Part shown: positions 10,834 through 41,847 of the stretch, in pieces | Numbering within the stretch: the first letter of the stretch is position 1 | How the letters are laid out: the number at the start of each line of letters is the position of its first letter | Assembly: GCA_044225505.1 (NCBI GenBank) | Contig: JBGAIN010000057.1 | Span: forward strand, 1 to 44,196 | Length of the DNA stretch: 44,196 bases | Source: Limisphaerales bacterium | Lineage (GTDB): Bacteria > Verrucomicrobiota > Verrucomicrobiia > Limisphaerales > SIBE01 | Direction of reading: 5' to 3' | Made by a program: the position numbers and the translations under genes | The notes under the pieces: model-generated | The model's input: the letters and a program-made list of their open reading frames with translations, nothing else | Told to the model about the DNA's origin: nothing | Databases searched by the model: none

Positions 10834-11551
10834 CTATCGGCCTACGGCCAAACGTTCGGCCAGGCGTTCGGGCAGTCCCGCCGCGCGGATCTTGGCCTGA
10901 GCGCCGGCGATATCGTAATCCAACCGCCGTATTTCAATGAGCCCTTCGTCGAGGTCGTAGGTCACATACGCCGCTTTGGGATTGCCGTCCCGTGCGGTTG
11001 CCCGACGCTTCCCACATTGATGAAATACTTACGGCCCGGTTCCACCTTGAATTTGGAGTAGGTTCCTCCCCGCACCACGGTATCGCGAATAAACGCCACC
11101 GGAACGTGGGTATGCCCAAAGAAACACACTGTTGTGTTCTGATAGGTGAAGCTGGCGGCGGCGGCGAGCCGATCAAAGACGTAACCCCAACGCTGTGGGC
11201 CATCGAGCGTGGCATGGACGATTGAGAAGCTCTGCGACGAGTCGCACTTTAGATCACGCAACCATTGGCGATCCTCACAACTGGTCGTCGCGTCCAATTG
11301 ACCGCTTCCGCTGCGTGCGGATTGAAACCCTCCAAGTTCGTCTCGATCGAGCAATACTCGTCATGGTTGCCTTTGACACAGGGCATCCCCATGCTTCTGA
11401 CAATGTCGAGGCATTCTTTAGGATTGGCGTTGTAACCGACAACGTCGCCTAGGCAGGCGTAGTGGGTGCATTTCTGCGTTTTGATGTCCTCCAGGACCAC
11501 CTGTAGGGCTTCCAGATTCGCGTGTATATCCGCAATGATCGCGTACTTCAT
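10834..11551 (-). pseudogene. Metallophosphoesterase (YfcE-like calcineurin fold) split by indels, probably assembly errors
   Basis: Frame 1 has DIHAN, GDVVGY, GNHD. Frame 2 has VHATLD, FGHTH, NVGSVGQP. Frame 3 has RDGNPKAAY...RRLDYD...GLPERLAERLAVGR and stops at 10834. Breaks fall at about 11240-11290 and about 10993. Confidence 0.85.
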
Positions 11552-12054: not shown

Positions 12055-12852
12055 TCACGAACTCGCCGAGGTGTAACGTCGCAAAGCAAAGCGCCAAACG
12101 GCTTCCGAGATGGCGAAGCAAACTGTGCTCAGGGCGACGAGGAGAAACATCTCCATGGGCGACTCCAACTTTCGAGCCAGGAGTTTGGCGGGCACGTTCG
12201 CTACCAGGAGGATCGGCAGAACGTAGGTGAACAAAACCTTAAACAGACCGCGAAAGGCCGCATCGGGCATGCGAGCGATGTTGAACAAGTTGTAATACCC
12301 CCAAACCACTCCTTGACCACGCACGGTCCAAAAGCTCGACGTCGCGAGGATCAGCATCAGTGAGTAATGCACCAGAACACTGGACACGGTCAGGATCAGA
12401 AACCCGATCCATTGCCCGACCGAAATTGTCAAATCGAGCTGTCGGGCCGCGTAAACCATCACGGCGACAGCCGAAGCCGCGTTTACAAACCCTCCCAGGT
12501 CGACCTGCCGAAACGAGATAAGGAACCGGGTGTTGACCGGGAGAAGCAGCATAAAATCCAGTTTCCCCGTGCGGATGAATTCGGACAGATTCGTAACGTT
12601 CGTCAGAAATATCGCTGTAAACGTTTGCTGGATGAAATGGCTTGCGCCCACCAAGAGCACGACTTCCCACTTGGTCCAGGTCGCAATATGGTCCGTGTGG
12701 CGGTAAATCACCGTCATAAATCCCAACTGGAGCCCAAACCAAAGCATCTCCACCACAATCCAGAGGAGAAAGTTGGCTTTAAACCCCATCTCGCGCACGA
12801 TGGAATTCCTCCACAAAGCCGCGTAAATCGTGAGGTATTTGGCAATCTGCAT
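12055..12852 (-). CDS. ABC-2 family permease (DUF990-like)
   Basis: Six hydrophobic segments; FIRTGKLDFMLLLP motif; start at ATG 12852 (MQIAKY). Confidence 0.88.
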   Translation of the reverse strand: MQIAKYLTIYAALWRNSIVREMGFKANFLLWIVVEMLWFGLQLGFMTVIYRHTDHIATWTKWEVVLLVGASHFIQQTFTAIFLTNVTNLSEFIRTGKLDFMLLLPVNTRFLISFRQVDLGGFVNAASAVAVMVYAARQLDLTISVGQWIGFLILTVSSVLVHYSLMLILATSSFWTVRGQGVVWGYYNLFNIARMPDAAFRGLFKVLFTYVLPILLVANVPAKLLARKLESPMEMFLLVALSTVCFAISEAVWRFALRRYTSASS

Positions 12853-13050
12853 CGGGCTCGCCGCTGCGGCGACGGCCAGAGCATGGCATGCCATCCGGAG
12901 GAGGTAAAGGATCAGGGGCTGAGTCAGGCATCAAGGTCCGCCTTGAGTCGGTGGTGTGCGAAAGTGCCCTCGATCTATGAAAATGGATTAGAGTGCAATA
13001 GCTATGAACGCCAATGGTTTACACTGCGAAATAGCACCTTTGGTTTGTGC

Positions 13051-13067
13051 CGTCCGCAATTTGCGGA
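13051..13067. repeat. Palindrome A (CGTCCGCAATTTGCGGA), identical to 23560-23576
   Basis: 17-bp exact match between two intergenic regions; both copies have CTGTC a few bases downstream. Confidence 0.75.
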
Positions 13068-13217
13068 AACGGGTCTGTCAACACTCTCCGGGGGGATTGG
13101 TGGAAATCCATAACTGCCTGAGGTGCAGTCAGCTTTCCAGGGAGTCGGCAAGGCGCCGCACTCGCCTTTACCTTGCGCGAGAGAAAGCCTCGCGGTTAGT
13201 CCGGACAGGAGTGAGGA

Positions 13218-13237
13218 ATGAGAGCAATTTGCTCCTG
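13218..13237. repeat. Palindrome C (ATGAGAGCAATTTGCTCCTG), inverted copy at 38495-38514
   Basis: 19/20 identity to the reverse complement of 38495-38514; only the central base differs. Confidence 0.75.
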
Positions 13238-13327
13238 AATCGAGCCCTGAGTTCCCATCCCGGGGGCGAGGAATAGGGTTGGCGAAGGCCGCGCCCAGTC
13301 CCTCCCGTGCGATAGCTGATACCGGAC

Positions 13328-13430
13328 TAAACAAGAATGCGACTCTCCCAAGGGAGAGTCGCACAGTGTGCCTGAGACCAACAACAGGTTGATCCCATAG
13401 TATAAAACAAAACTGAGATCGGATTGGTAA
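13328..13430 (-). ncRNA. Putative small RNA, copy 1 (hairpin - GGCACACUG linker - intrinsic terminator)
   Basis: Core 13336-13397: TGGGATCAAC-CTGTT-GTTGGTCTCA GGCACACTG TGCGACTCTCC-CTTG-GGAGAGTCGCA, then TTCTTGTTT. The 5' end is uncertain. Confidence 0.6.
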
Positions 13431-13450
13431 TCGCGGATCGGGTCGGTGGG

Positions 13451-13557
13451 ACAAAAAGAAAAATGCGACTCCCCATCGGGAGAGTCGCACAGTGTGCCTG
13501 AGATCAACAACAGGTTGATCCCACTTACTTAAAACAATTGAGCAATCCAACTGGTAA
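13451..13557 (-). ncRNA. Putative small RNA, copy 2 (sibling of copy 1, 126-bp period)
   Basis: Core 13462-13523, 57/62 identical to copy 1: TGGGATCAAC-CTGTT-GTTGATCTCA GGCACACTG TGCGACTCTCC-CGAT-GGGGAGTCGCA, then TTTTTCTTTTT. Confidence 0.62.
13452..13489 (-). terminator. Rho-independent terminator (copy 2); equivalent at about 13329-13363
   Basis: 11-bp GC-rich stem followed directly by a U-rich tract on the minus strand. Confidence 0.75.
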
Positions 13558-13676
13558 CCATCGATCGAAACAACCTGCCAGTTCAGGAAACGGAGCGCAC
13601 CGAGGCACCCATCCTAACGGAATGCACTGGGCCGAGTTGCATCTTGTTCACTTGACGCCATAGTAGAGCAACGGAA

Positions 13677-15662
13677 ATGGAGTCCAAGGACGCTCAAGGA
13701 GATTTACGCCCCAGTTCGCTGCCTTTAACGGGGCACCTTGAAATTCCAAAACGCCGGTTGCCCGTCGGAGCGGAGATCACAGAGTCAGGAAAGGCCCATT
13801 TTCGTGTCTGGGCGCCTCAGACCAAGACTGTGGCCGTGATTTGCGCGGCCAGTGTCGCAGAGTTGCAGAACGCCCGCCCCGTGCCCCTGGAGCGTGAGGA
13901 AAATGGCTATTTCTCGGGTTTTATTGCTGAGGGAAAGGCGGGAGCGCTTTACAAGTTTTGCTTGGATCGAGGCTGCTTTCCAGATCCGGCATCCCGGTTT
14001 CAGCCCGAGGGACCGCATGGTCCTTCTCAAGTGATCGATCCGAGCCGGTTCCAGTGGAGTGACCAGCGGTGGAACGGTGTCGCCAGCCGCAGCAATGTCA
14101 TCTACGAGATGCATATTGGAACTTTCACCCAGGAAGGGACTTGGAGAGCGGCGATGGCACAGTTACCGCATTTGGCGGATTTGGGGCTGACCCTGCTCGA
14201 GTTGATGCCGGTGGCTGAGTTTCCTGGGCGATTCGGATGGGGCTATGATGGAGTCGATCTCTTCGCGCCGACCCATCTGTATGGGAGCCCGGACGATTTC
14301 CGGCAGTTTGTCGATGAGGCGCATCGCGTGGGTTTGGGAGTCATCCTGGACGTGGTTTACAATCATTTCGGACCGGATGGGAACTATTTGAAGGAGTTTG
14401 CCGAAGCTTACTTTACCGACCGCTACAAGAACGAATGGGGAGAGGCGATCAATTTTGACGGGGCGGACGCAGCCCCAGTTCGCGAGTTCTTCATTGCCAA
14501 CGCCGGTTATTGGATAGACGAGTTTCACTTGGACGGCCTGCGCCTGGACGCAACGCAGCAGATTTTTGATAGATCCCCTGAAAATGTCATGCTGCTGATG
14601 ACGAGGCAGGTGCAGAACGCAGCGAAAGGCCGCCAAACTTACATTGTAGCGGAGAACGAACCTCAGGAAACCCGGTTGGTGCGGTCGGTGGAATCTGGAG
14701 GCTACGGGATGGACGCGCTGTGGAATGACGATTTCCATCACGAAGCCATCGTCGCGGTCACGGGACGGGCGGAGGCGTACTATTCGGATTACCGAGGTAC
14801 ACCGCAAGAGTTCATCTCAGCTCTAAAATATGGCTACCTATTTCAAGGCCAGCGATATCGGTGGCAACAAAAACGACGTGGATCTCCCGCACTGGATTTA
14901 GAGCCGTGGAAGTTCGTTAATTACATTCAGAACCACGATCAAGTGGCCAACTCCCTGCGCGGTGCTCGGTTGCACGCGATCGCTGGTCCAGGCCAGTTCC
15001 GGGCTCTCACAGCCCTCTTATTGCTTGGCCCGGGATCCCCTATGCTTTTCCAGGGGCAGGAGTTTGGAGCGTCGCAGCCATTCTTCTATTTCGCGGATCA
15101 CAATCCGGAACTCGCCAAACGGGTCGCGAAAGGGCGCAAAGAATTCCTCGCCCAATTCCGCACCATTGCTGGCGGCGCGTGCGAGCATGTCCTGGCTAAC
15201 CCGGAATCCGAAGAGACATTTCGCCGCTGCAAGTTGGACTTTACCGAGCGGCACACCCATGCCGAGATCTACGCTTTGCATCGGGATTTGCTCCACTGGC
15301 GAAAGAACGATCCAGTCTTGGGTAACCCTCGGCGTGGGGGTATGGACGGGGCTGTCCTGGGAGCGGAAGCGTTTGTCCTCCGCTACTTTGGCGCTGCGGG
15401 TAGCGATCGACTCCTCCTGGTCAACTTCGGGGTCGACCTCGAATTGGACCCGGCACCTGAGCCGCTCCTGGCTCCTTTGCGTGATCGAGCGTGGCGCGTG
15501 GTGTGGTCGACGGAAGATCCGGCTTACGGCGGCTGTGGCATGCCTCCGTTAGAGAGCGATGGACGCTGGTGGCTGCCTGGCCACGCGGCTGTCCTGCTGG
15601 AGCCTGGGATAATCTTGGAACAAGTTCATGGAGAAAATCATCCGTCGAATCAATCTGACTAA
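13677..15662 (+). CDS. treZ: Malto-oligosyltrehalose trehalohydrolase (GH13)
   Basis: FRVWAP, PDPASRFQPEGPHGPS, YEMHIGTFT, WGYDGV, DVVYNHFGP, GLRLDAT, AENE, WNDDFHH, QNHDQ. Confidence 0.92.
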   Translation: MESKDAQGDLRPSSLPLTGHLEIPKRRLPVGAEITESGKAHFRVWAPQTKTVAVICAASVAELQNARPVPLEREENGYFSGFIAEGKAGALYKFCLDRGCFPDPASRFQPEGPHGPSQVIDPSRFQWSDQRWNGVASRSNVIYEMHIGTFTQEGTWRAAMAQLPHLADLGLTLLELMPVAEFPGRFGWGYDGVDLFAPTHLYGSPDDFRQFVDEAHRVGLGVILDVVYNHFGPDGNYLKEFAEAYFTDRYKNEWGEAINFDGADAAPVREFFIANAGYWIDEFHLDGLRLDATQQIFDRSPENVMLLMTRQVQNAAKGRQTYIVAENEPQETRLVRSVESGGYGMDALWNDDFHHEAIVAVTGRAEAYYSDYRGTPQEFISALKYGYLFQGQRYRWQQKRRGSPALDLEPWKFVNYIQNHDQVANSLRGARLHAIAGPGQFRALTALLLLGPGSPMLFQGQEFGASQPFFYFADHNPELAKRVAKGRKEFLAQFRTIAGGACEHVLANPESEETFRRCKLDFTERHTHAEIYALHRDLLHWRKNDPVLGNPRRGGMDGAVLGAEAFVLRYFGAAGSDRLLLVNFGVDLELDPAPEPLLAPLRDRAWRVVWSTEDPAYGGCGMPPLESDGRWWLPGHAAVLLEPGIILEQVHGENHPSNQSD

Positions 15663-23559: not shown

Positions 23560-23587
23560 CGTCCGCAATTTGCGGACGCGCCTGTCT
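23560..23587. repeat. Perfect palindrome A (CGTCCGCAATTTGCGGACG) plus CGCCTGTCT tail
   Basis: 9-bp arms. Shares 17 bp with 13051-13067 and 17/18 bp with 30155-30172. Confidence 0.75.
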
Positions 23588-41226: not shown

Positions 41227-41847
41227 ATGAAAATGGTAACGACTCAACCCACCGACGTTTCCCGCGAGATCCCGGTCGCTTCGGACTGGGTGGATGCCTA
41301 CGGCGATTACCTGTTGAATTTTGCCTTGGGGCAGGTGCATGACCAGGGAGTCGCGGAGGATTTGGTCCAGGAAACGTTTCTGGCCGCATTGAAGGGAAAG
41401 GATCGTTTTGCGGGCCGGTCTGCGGAACGAACCTGGTTGATCGGGATCCTTCGCCACAAGATCTATGATCACCTCCGCCGAACTTGCCGGGATCGAGCCC
41501 GCCAAGCTCCATTCGTTCCATCGCGTAACGACCAGGAAGCCTGGGATGAATCCGTTCTGTGGTTGCACGAGGTGGCGTCTGAATGTCAGTCGCCAAGTCG
41601 GAGAATGGAATTGGACGAGCTACGCTCTCAACTTGAGACGGCGTTGGGGCGACTCCCGTCGCGGCTAGCCCAAGTTTTTCAGCTCTACGCCGTAGAGGAG
41701 AAGACTAACGCCGAGGTTTGCGAACAGCTTAAAATCTCGGAAAGCAACCTCTGGGTGATGCTACACCGAGCACGAAAGCAATTGCGCGAGCTATTGTCGA
41801 CTTGGGGATCAAGAGACACCACGCGATCGGAGAACTCCGAATCCTAG
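41227..41847 (+). CDS. ECF RNA polymerase sigma factor (TIGR02943-like)
   Basis: AEDLVQETFLAA, FAGRSAERTWL.GILRHKI.D (region 2); LP....VF....EVC..L.ISESNLWVMLHRAR..LR (region 4). Confidence 0.93.
   Translation: MKMVTTQPTDVSREIPVASDWVDAYGDYLLNFALGQVHDQGVAEDLVQETFLAALKGKDRFAGRSAERTWLIGILRHKIYDHLRRTCRDRARQAPFVPSRNDQEAWDESVLWLHEVASECQSPSRRMELDELRSQLETALGRLPSRLAQVFQLYAVEEKTNAEVCEQLKISESNLWVMLHRARKQLRELLSTWGSRDTTRSENSES

Follow-up and report, generated by a model that had tools for sequence, protein, structure and literature searches.

A tandem pair of predicted sibling small RNAs from one genus of Verrucomicrobiota

Introduction

Several bacteria carry pairs of similar small RNA (sRNA) genes arranged head to tail about 100 nt apart: PrrF1/PrrF2 in Pseudomonas aeruginosa, OmrA/OmrB in Escherichia coli and AbcR1/AbcR2 in the Rhizobiales. 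Each member of these pairs has its own promoter and its own intrinsic terminator, the siblings differ outside the segment presumed to do the work, and the RNAs depend on Hfq. MicA and RybB of E. coli represent another arrangement: they are short RNAs that end at an intrinsic terminator and are made from a non-housekeeping, sigmaE-dependent promoter type shared with a few envelope or surface genes. For the Planctomycetes-Verrucomicrobia-Chlamydiae (PVC) group the inventory is far smaller than for Proteobacteria, with 8 distinct sRNAs as against 345 in the counts listed by a 2022 review (PMC9029176).

Here we describe a locus in a 44,196-nt stretch of DNA from a Limisphaerales bacterium of the phylum Verrucomicrobiota (assembly GCA_044225505.1, contig JBGAIN010000057.1, positions 1 to 44,196), which we refer to as the window. 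An initial annotation of the letters alone had pointed to two similar structured RNAs on the minus strand around 13328-13557 and proposed that they are duplicated, trans-acting sRNAs of a family it did not recognise. Our comparative analysis indicates that, on balance, the locus probably holds two sibling sRNA genes, predicted from sequence, which arose by a recent tandem duplication of the whole transcription unit.

Results

The twin units and their predicted RNAs

A repeat search returned two 69-nt direct-repeat copies, at 13329-13397 and 13455-13523, with 90% identity and a spacing of 126, the same spacing as in the initial annotation; the identity of 57 in 62 positions claimed there was reproduced with the core 13523-13462 set against 13397-13336. 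The copy that comes first on the minus strand is called A here, and the second B. Direct comparison of 13524-13463 with 13398-13337 shows six differences. One is the base directly 5' of the first hairpin; the 3' arms of that hairpin and of the terminator hold one each (A/G and G/A, respectively), and the terminator loop holds the other three. The initial annotation was therefore right that three differences lie in the terminator loop and that both stem differences exchange U-A for U-G.

RNAfold agrees with the architecture first proposed for the minus strand of each copy: a 10-bp hairpin with the loop CUGUU, the unpaired linker GGCACACU, a terminator hairpin, whose stem we find to be 12 bp, and a U tract. 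The predicted RNA of copy A, about 70 nt, occupies 13452-13524 (minus strand), with hairpin 1 at 13523-13499 (loop 13513-13509), the linker at 13498-13491, the terminator at 13490-13463 and the U tract at 13462-13453; we infer its 5' end from the -10-like box described below. Copy B, also about 70 nt, occupies 13328-13398 on the same strand, with hairpin 1 at 13397-13373, the linker at 13372-13365, the terminator at 13364-13337 and, at 13336-13329, the U tract UCUUGUUU, which is weaker than that of copy A.

A terminator scan placed both terminators on the minus strand, at these same positions. The stem of each is 12 bp long, 7 of its pairs being G-C, and encloses a loop of 4 nt; the U tract comes after it. 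The same layout is found in all three copies known from relatives; a generic bacterial trans-acting sRNA gene would end in such a terminator, and both copies do. The minus-strand folds have energies of -38.1 and -36.3 kcal/mol (z -4.2 and -3.6) and those of the plus strand -29.6 and -32.8 kcal/mol (z -3.8 and -3.7). Because the z values of the two strands are similar, fold energy by itself cannot settle which strand is read.

The duplication took the promoter-like block, RNA and terminator as one unit. Four DNA runs were compared as contigs, one of which did not cover the tandem; contigs from the runs of two other studies contain it, with both RNAs unchanged, and it is therefore no assembly artefact.

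Conservation, covariation and strand

The window's own genome (G000) is 9.0 Mb in size and 95% complete. We compared it with two other species of the same genus (G001 and G002), with members of other genera of the same family, among them G005 and G007, and, by DNA similarity search, with relatives in a set of 61 genomes that included G000. Matches in that search were confined to the three species of the window's genus, with E values of 3.7e-26 and 7.1e-13 in the two other species. There are five copies in all: two in G000, two in G001 (C80 and C108) and one in G002 (C12); as G001 is just 63% complete, it may hold further copies. Between species the RNA is 86-90% identical, whereas the flanking intergenic DNA cannot be aligned and the neighbouring protein is only 75-76% identical. 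That the identity of the RNA exceeds that of its flanks and of the neighbouring protein suggests that it is under selection.

Pairing was counted in an alignment of the five sequences against a 22-pair consensus structure, which gives 110 pair cells. On the minus strand 109 of the 110 cells are standard pairs (99.1%), and on the plus strand, with the structure mirrored, 94 are (85.5%). Fifteen G-U cells of the minus strand turn into C-A mismatches when the plus strand is read. This favours the minus strand as the one that yields an RNA, as the initial annotation had argued from the two copies of the window. Four pairs, three of them in hairpin 1, are altered on both sides, so that the pairing-preserving variation seen between the twins extends to the relatives; such compensatory change on one strand, here among five related sequences, is what an sRNA gene would be expected to display. 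The invariance of linker and loop also extends to the relatives: all five copies have the same CCTGT.G and CTCAGGCACAC, and likewise the same 11-nt segment CUCAGGCACAC, made up of the 3' foot of the hairpin and the unpaired linker, and the stems are variable.

These data also bear on a reading in which there is no RNA gene and the repeats act as DNA, either as operator palindromes or as a duplicated bidirectional terminator left by rearrangements. Both stems are palindromes in the DNA too, and the terminator at G001:C108 could also serve the convergent gene there. Set against this, the 15 G-U cells make the DNA palindrome imperfect, half-sites change with pairing kept, the most conserved parts are the unpaired linker and the loop, a promoter-like block lies at a fixed distance, and each genome has one or two copies. 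We consider a DNA-level element highly unlikely.

Distribution and comparison with known families

Scanning the whole window with the 4227 models of Rfam 15 at gathering thresholds gave no match, in keeping with the initial annotation, which had not recognised the family. With permissive filters over 13000-13900 MIR393 came closest, with a score of 17.6 bits where the threshold is 60 (E 0.77); this match stretches across both copies and is clearly spurious. No similar DNA turned up when 72,556 plasmid records and 50,697 phage records were searched with blastn, and a mobile element, phage or plasmid origin finds no support in this result or in the presence of just two copies in the window's own genome.

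A covariance-model search had been proposed in the initial annotation. We built one model of the RNA (R1) and one of promoter, hairpin and linker without the terminator (R2), and together they recovered the five copies in one genus. R1 found all five among 13 genomes of the family, at 83-97 bits (96.8 for copy A and 89.2 for copy B), and three of the five among 151 genomes of the order, a sample without G001. Outside the genus R1 gave only 25-29 bits, and on inspection these matches were ordinary terminators after stop codons, apart from two that are unclear. R2, run on the 13 family genomes, returned only the five known copies, the next best match having 24.9 bits (E 0.1).

The pattern CCTGTNGNTGNNCTCAGGCACAC, which joins loop and linker, occurred in the genome collection only at the three known loci of the relatives, in a search from which the window's own records were possibly excluded; in the metagenome collection it occurred at four loci (two sequences, each found twice) with neither hairpin nor terminator, which we attribute to chance. 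The regions upstream of the ABC-2 permease gene, the neighbour of the RNAs discussed below, held no such element in orthologues from eight genomes of other genera. Within the genomes searched, the RNA family is restricted to one genus. It matches no family described in Rfam 15 and would be a lineage-restricted case of sibling sRNAs that end in terminators.

Two elements outside the genus share some features with the RNA. G007:C567:3633-3699 (locus L012 1501-1567, minus strand) has a hairpin, GGCAC and a terminator and scores 28 bits with R1; its homology is uncertain. A -10 box of the TATAAT type precedes it, a signal peptidase gene lies downstream, and there is no synteny with the window. The unclear R1 match at G102:C3 has CCUGUAGC and CUCAGG in common with the RNA.

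The promoter-like motif and its recurrence

Upstream of every copy stands (G)GTTACCA, followed by 16 variable bases and GTTT(T)A, with another 6-10 bases before the hairpin. The five copies from the three genomes all have the same TTACCA and the same GTTT, and the 16-nt spacer between them varies. The weaker similarity that the initial annotation had noticed 5' of the twins (TTACCA ... TTGTTTTA) is thus real and kept in the relatives. From TTACCA to CTCAGG the distance is 55 nt in the three copies of the relatives; read by eye from the sequence, copy A has the same distance and copy B one of 54 nt. For copy A the -35-like box GGTTACCA lies at 13552-13559 (minus strand) and recurs elsewhere at the same spacing, with the -10-like box GTTTTAA at 13529-13535, 16 nt past GTTACCA; for copy B the corresponding boxes, GATTACCA at 13425-13432 and GTTTTAT at 13402-13408 (minus strand), are conserved in the alignment.

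The conserved block is not matched by a sigma70 consensus scan. Of 47 regions upstream of tRNA and tmRNA genes in G000, 12 have TTGAC-N17-19-nAnnnT and 2 have TTACC; the putative promoter of the RNAs is unlike these housekeeping promoters of the TTGACA type. A sigma54-dependent promoter of the Qrr-like kind, which would have a conserved -24 GG and -12 GC, was rejected: the weak sigma54-like site of the initial annotation, TGGCAG-N5-TTCG at 13566-13580 (minus strand), lies upstream of copy A only and is missing at copy B and at the three copies of the relatives. We leave it out of the element.

The motif recurs away from the RNAs. GTTACCA-N16-GTTT has 8 sites in G000, compared with 0-4 at the other spacings tested; G001 has 9 sites, compared with 6 for a backwards control, and G002 has 5, compared with 0. 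Sites with extended similarity precede genes for receiver-domain proteins that are homologous between G000 and G001 (37% identity); others lie upstream of a Bac_transf (priming sugar transferase) gene and of small, 63-71-aa VPDSG-CTERM proteins at G001:C45, G001:C108, G000:C96 and G000:C297. The site at G000:C96 has a variant -10 box, and the open reading frame (ORF) at G000:C297 is below the threshold for the family, with the motif present. At G001:C108 the putative promoter of the VPDSG-CTERM gene and that of the RNA copy point away from each other. The G000 genome has 101 matches to sigma-70 region 2, one of them in the window at 41290-41484 (plus strand), and its sigma-factor repertoire is very large and probably mostly of the extracytoplasmic function (ECF) type. 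Two simple explanations of the recurrence were rejected: an autoregulated sigma factor, as the 101 region-2 matches gave a single weak motif site, and a general link of the motif to VPDSG-CTERM genes, as none of the eight PF18205 matches in G000, among them the one at C96, has the strict motif.

A further sRNA-like unit of about 150 nt lies behind GGTTACCA-N16-GTTTTAA at G000:C162:25347-25540 (locus L031, about 548-745). Its fold energy is -64.3 kcal/mol (z -2.7), and an intrinsic terminator closes the unit; Rfam gave no match to it, and G001, G002, G005 and G007 showed no counterpart.

Other sites form a class of promoter plus leader (loci L051-L064), in which GGTTACCA-N16-GTTT is followed by a short hairpin or palindrome like GUCC-N7-GGAC and later by GGACAC or GAGACAC. 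Its members are C48:57746(-), C297:15280(-), C330:59309(-) and C96 at about 14840(+) in G000; C35, C45, C46, C61 and C108 in G001; and C15, C43 and C105 in G002. The genes behind them encode receiver-domain proteins, small VPDSG-CTERM proteins, the sugar transferase and products of ORFs of no family.

This class raises the possibility that the same transcripts act through a protein partner instead of base pairing: the RNA would mimic an RGnACAC box (GAGACAC/GGACAC) in mRNA leaders of the same promoter class and so titrate a regulator of these leaders. The leaders behind promoters of the GGTTACCA type in G000-G002 start with the GUCC-N7-GGAC hairpin and carry the box about 33-52 nt after the -10-like element, and the sRNA has a hairpin and then the invariant GGCACAC at a similar distance. 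Two of the leaders, G001:C61 and G002:C105, read GCCUGUUyyrrGACAC, which recalls CCUGUU...CAGGCACAC of the sRNA, and the genome encodes CsrA. Yet the likeness was judged by eye and carries no statistic, the distance and flanks of the box vary, no candidate protein emerged, and the box of the sRNA has GGC in place of the GGA that CsrA-type proteins need. We regard titration of this kind as unlikely.

Genomic context and the possibility of a leader

Read along the minus strand, the locus comprises a divergent alpha-amylase-family gene (13677 onwards, plus strand), copy A, copy B, a spacer of about 475 nt (12853-13327) that comparison with the relatives marks as specific to this genome, and a gene for an ABC-2 family permease (PF06182, Pfam E 4e-46; 12055-12852, minus strand, with the start set by alignment to the G001 and G002 orthologues). 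The spacer has no homologous stretch in G001, G002 or G007, just matches of about 20 nt, and a fold z of -1.5; its final 60 nt resemble the short spacer of G002. It contains two copies, at 13056 and 13224, of a palindrome GCAATTTGC/GCAAATTGC with complementary flanks, which also occurs at 23565, 35243 and 38500 of the window and 193 times in the genome, against 35-129 times for control 9-mers of the same or similar composition. The palindrome copies explain some 30 short self-matches of the spacer.

The permease gene is the downstream neighbour at three of the four loci. At G001:C80 and G002:C12 it starts about 55 nt past the terminator, and the copy at G001:C108 is followed by a convergent beta-lactamase-family gene. 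The initial annotation had argued against a riboswitch or attenuator from the lack of a credible ORF downstream; this holds in the window, with its gap of about 475 nt, but not in G001 and G002, and the empty-downstream argument cannot be used to dismiss a role in cis.

Two features define an RNA-based riboswitch or attenuator. An invariable position 5' of a co-oriented gene is contradicted by the convergent gene at G001:C108 and by the gap in the window. Nor are there mutually exclusive terminator and antiterminator folds: with the 3' arm of the terminator blocked, the only alternative common to all five copies is a 4-bp GCAC/GUGC mini-hairpin, no credible antiterminator, and the total energy falls in magnitude to about -16 to -21 kcal/mol without the terminator from -32 to -39 kcal/mol with it. 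An RNA-only switch is absent, and protein-dependent antitermination may operate.

In the form that such control would take here, the element would be a cis-acting leader, that is, a promoter-proximal attenuator of the ABC-2 gene controlled by a protein. The same-strand position directly 5' of orthologous ABC-2 genes at three of four loci speaks for it, as does the failure to detect a consensus sigma70 promoter between terminator and gene. In other genera the permease gene either follows another permease gene, as in G005 and G007, or has a different upstream region, from which it follows that the element replaced that upstream region in the window's genus. The counter-evidence is that a convergent gene comes after the copy at G001:C108, that about 475 nt and, for copy A, a second full promoter-terminator unit intervene in the window, that the 12-bp terminator competes with nothing stronger than the 4-bp mini-hairpin, and that no riboswitch family is matched. 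A weak promoter of the permease's own may also exist: TTTACC-N17-CATGCT at 12880-12908 (minus strand), which the consensus scan did not detect, has counterparts in G001 and G002, where TTTACs-N17-nAnnCT can be read by eye after the terminator. A protein-controlled leader seems improbable to us, and so does its more detailed form, in which an antiterminator or NusG-like factor would read loop or linker and the tandem would act as a double checkpoint.

Several features of the neighbourhood may be recorded here. In G005 (L046) and G007 (L048) the orthologue of 12055-12852 lies directly behind another permease gene; in the window's genus the permease gene stands alone behind the RNA and is followed by an acylphosphatase gene, with no adjacent ATPase gene. 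At 10962-11551 (minus strand) the overlapping ORFs 11249-11551 and 10962-11354 match N- and C-terminal parts of calcineurin-like phosphoesterase families, as would be expected of a gene with a frameshift or of an error in the sequence.

Partners and candidate targets

Neither Hfq nor ProQ was found in the G000 genome, at its completeness of 95%, and CsrA is encoded there. The sRNA is accordingly probably independent of Hfq. Sponges of the CsrB/RsmY type expose several GGA motifs in loops. Such a role was rejected: the exposed parts of the RNA, the loop CUGUU and the linker GGCACACU, lack GGA, and such GGA triplets as it has are buried in stems and not shared by every copy.

Against the 5' regions of the ABC-2 and amylase genes, the duplex energies of the whole-length RNA were no better than those of shuffled sequence. 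A complement of at least 10 nt of the linker occurs at 79 places in G000, a count that includes both RNA genes, and none is compelling. Two unrelated 5' regions, at G000:C62:25566 and G000:C179:20605, share a 10-nt linker complement, AGTGTGCCTG, and the 13-mer GTCTCGAGAAAAC, in opposite order at the two places. The 13-mer has three occurrences in the genome, and we treat it as unexplained or due to chance.

Discussion

An independent sRNA gene, here present as two tandem siblings, is still the best reading of the region. In the mechanism that we propose, each unit would be transcribed from a non-housekeeping promoter of its own, (G)GTTACCA-N16-GTTT(T)A, from a few bases before the stable 10-bp 5' hairpin, which may be protective, to the strong intrinsic terminator, giving an RNA of about 70 nt. 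The stems would be kept merely as structure, and the 7-nt loop region CCUGUUG and CUCAGGCACAC as sequence, a constraint which would make these two the working surfaces of the RNA. Linker, loop or both may serve as the seed that base-pairs with mRNAs in trans, with neither Hfq nor ProQ. The RNA would be co-induced with genes that have the same promoter type, namely those for VPDSG-CTERM proteins, the receiver-domain protein and the priming sugar transferase, and the pair would supply the non-coding part of a small regulon concerned with the cell surface.

Several points weigh against this proposal. The covariation rests on four pairs in only five sequences from three related genomes, and kinship alone can let sequences beat shuffles in the absence of structure, which tempers the finding that only 5 of 500 shuffles reached the observed pairing values; the best slid control had 49.5% of its cells paired. 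No conserved target was found: the best 5' linker complement, 10 nt at the MarR-like gene of C62, is not conserved in G001 or G002. The enrichment of the promoter motif is modest, a looser form having 11 sites at a spacing of 16 and 3-10 at others; its strict form is found at none of the eight PF18205 matches in G000, and one weak site is all that accompanies the 101 region-2 matches of sigma genes. Finally, the position directly upstream of the ABC-2 gene at three of four loci, at about 55 nt in G001 and G002, is leader-like, and the consensus scan found no promoter between terminator and gene.

A more ambitious reading joins the RNAs to the leaders in an undescribed post-transcriptional circuit. 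Here the sRNAs, the small exosortase-sorted VPDSG-CTERM proteins and the receiver-domain protein with an exopolysaccharide (EPS)-priming transferase would all depend on GGTTACCA-N16-GTTT, a dedicated promoter type that some member of the set of roughly 100 sigma factors may recognise, and the sRNAs would act through hairpin plus RGnACAC as decoys or feedback regulators for an RNA-binding factor that controls surface and floc-related proteins in activated-sludge bacteria. We think it quite unlikely that the circuit exists in this full form. A full-text literature search for 'VPDSG-CTERM' returned no paper, and the titles and abstracts of the literature on Verrucomicrobia sRNAs and PEP-CTERM promoters do not describe the RNA or its promoter.

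If the two units are sibling sRNA genes, as we favour, they offer an entry point to riboregulation in this phylum and to the factor that reads promoters of the GGTTACCA type. They would provide a structurally supported sibling sRNA family with a recognisable non-housekeeping promoter from an uncultured sludge bacterium, of a value limited by the narrow distribution in one genus.

The locus can be set beside three kinds of described system. It shares with terminator-based leaders a conserved hairpin and terminator shortly 5' of a co-oriented transporter gene at three of four loci; unlike them, it has no antiterminator, matches no Rfam riboswitch, has a predicted promoter for each tandem copy and includes one copy with no co-oriented gene downstream. 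With the sigmaE-dependent MicA and RybB it shares a short RNA that would end at an intrinsic terminator and a putative promoter type, distinct from the housekeeping one, in common with a few surface genes; the difference is that no sigma gene with the motif upstream was found, and co-regulation is suggested here by the motif alone. The closest resemblance is to PrrF1/PrrF2, OmrA/OmrB and AbcR1/AbcR2, in the head-to-tail order and spacing, in the individual promoters, which are predicted here, and terminators, and in sibling differences that fall outside the presumed working segment. Those RNAs differ in regulator, targets and phylum, show no similarity to the present pair in sequence or in the models of Rfam 15, and use Hfq, which was not found in G000. 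Membership in any of their families is not supported, and the likeness to known sibling and regulon sRNAs is, as far as this comparison reaches, one of architecture.

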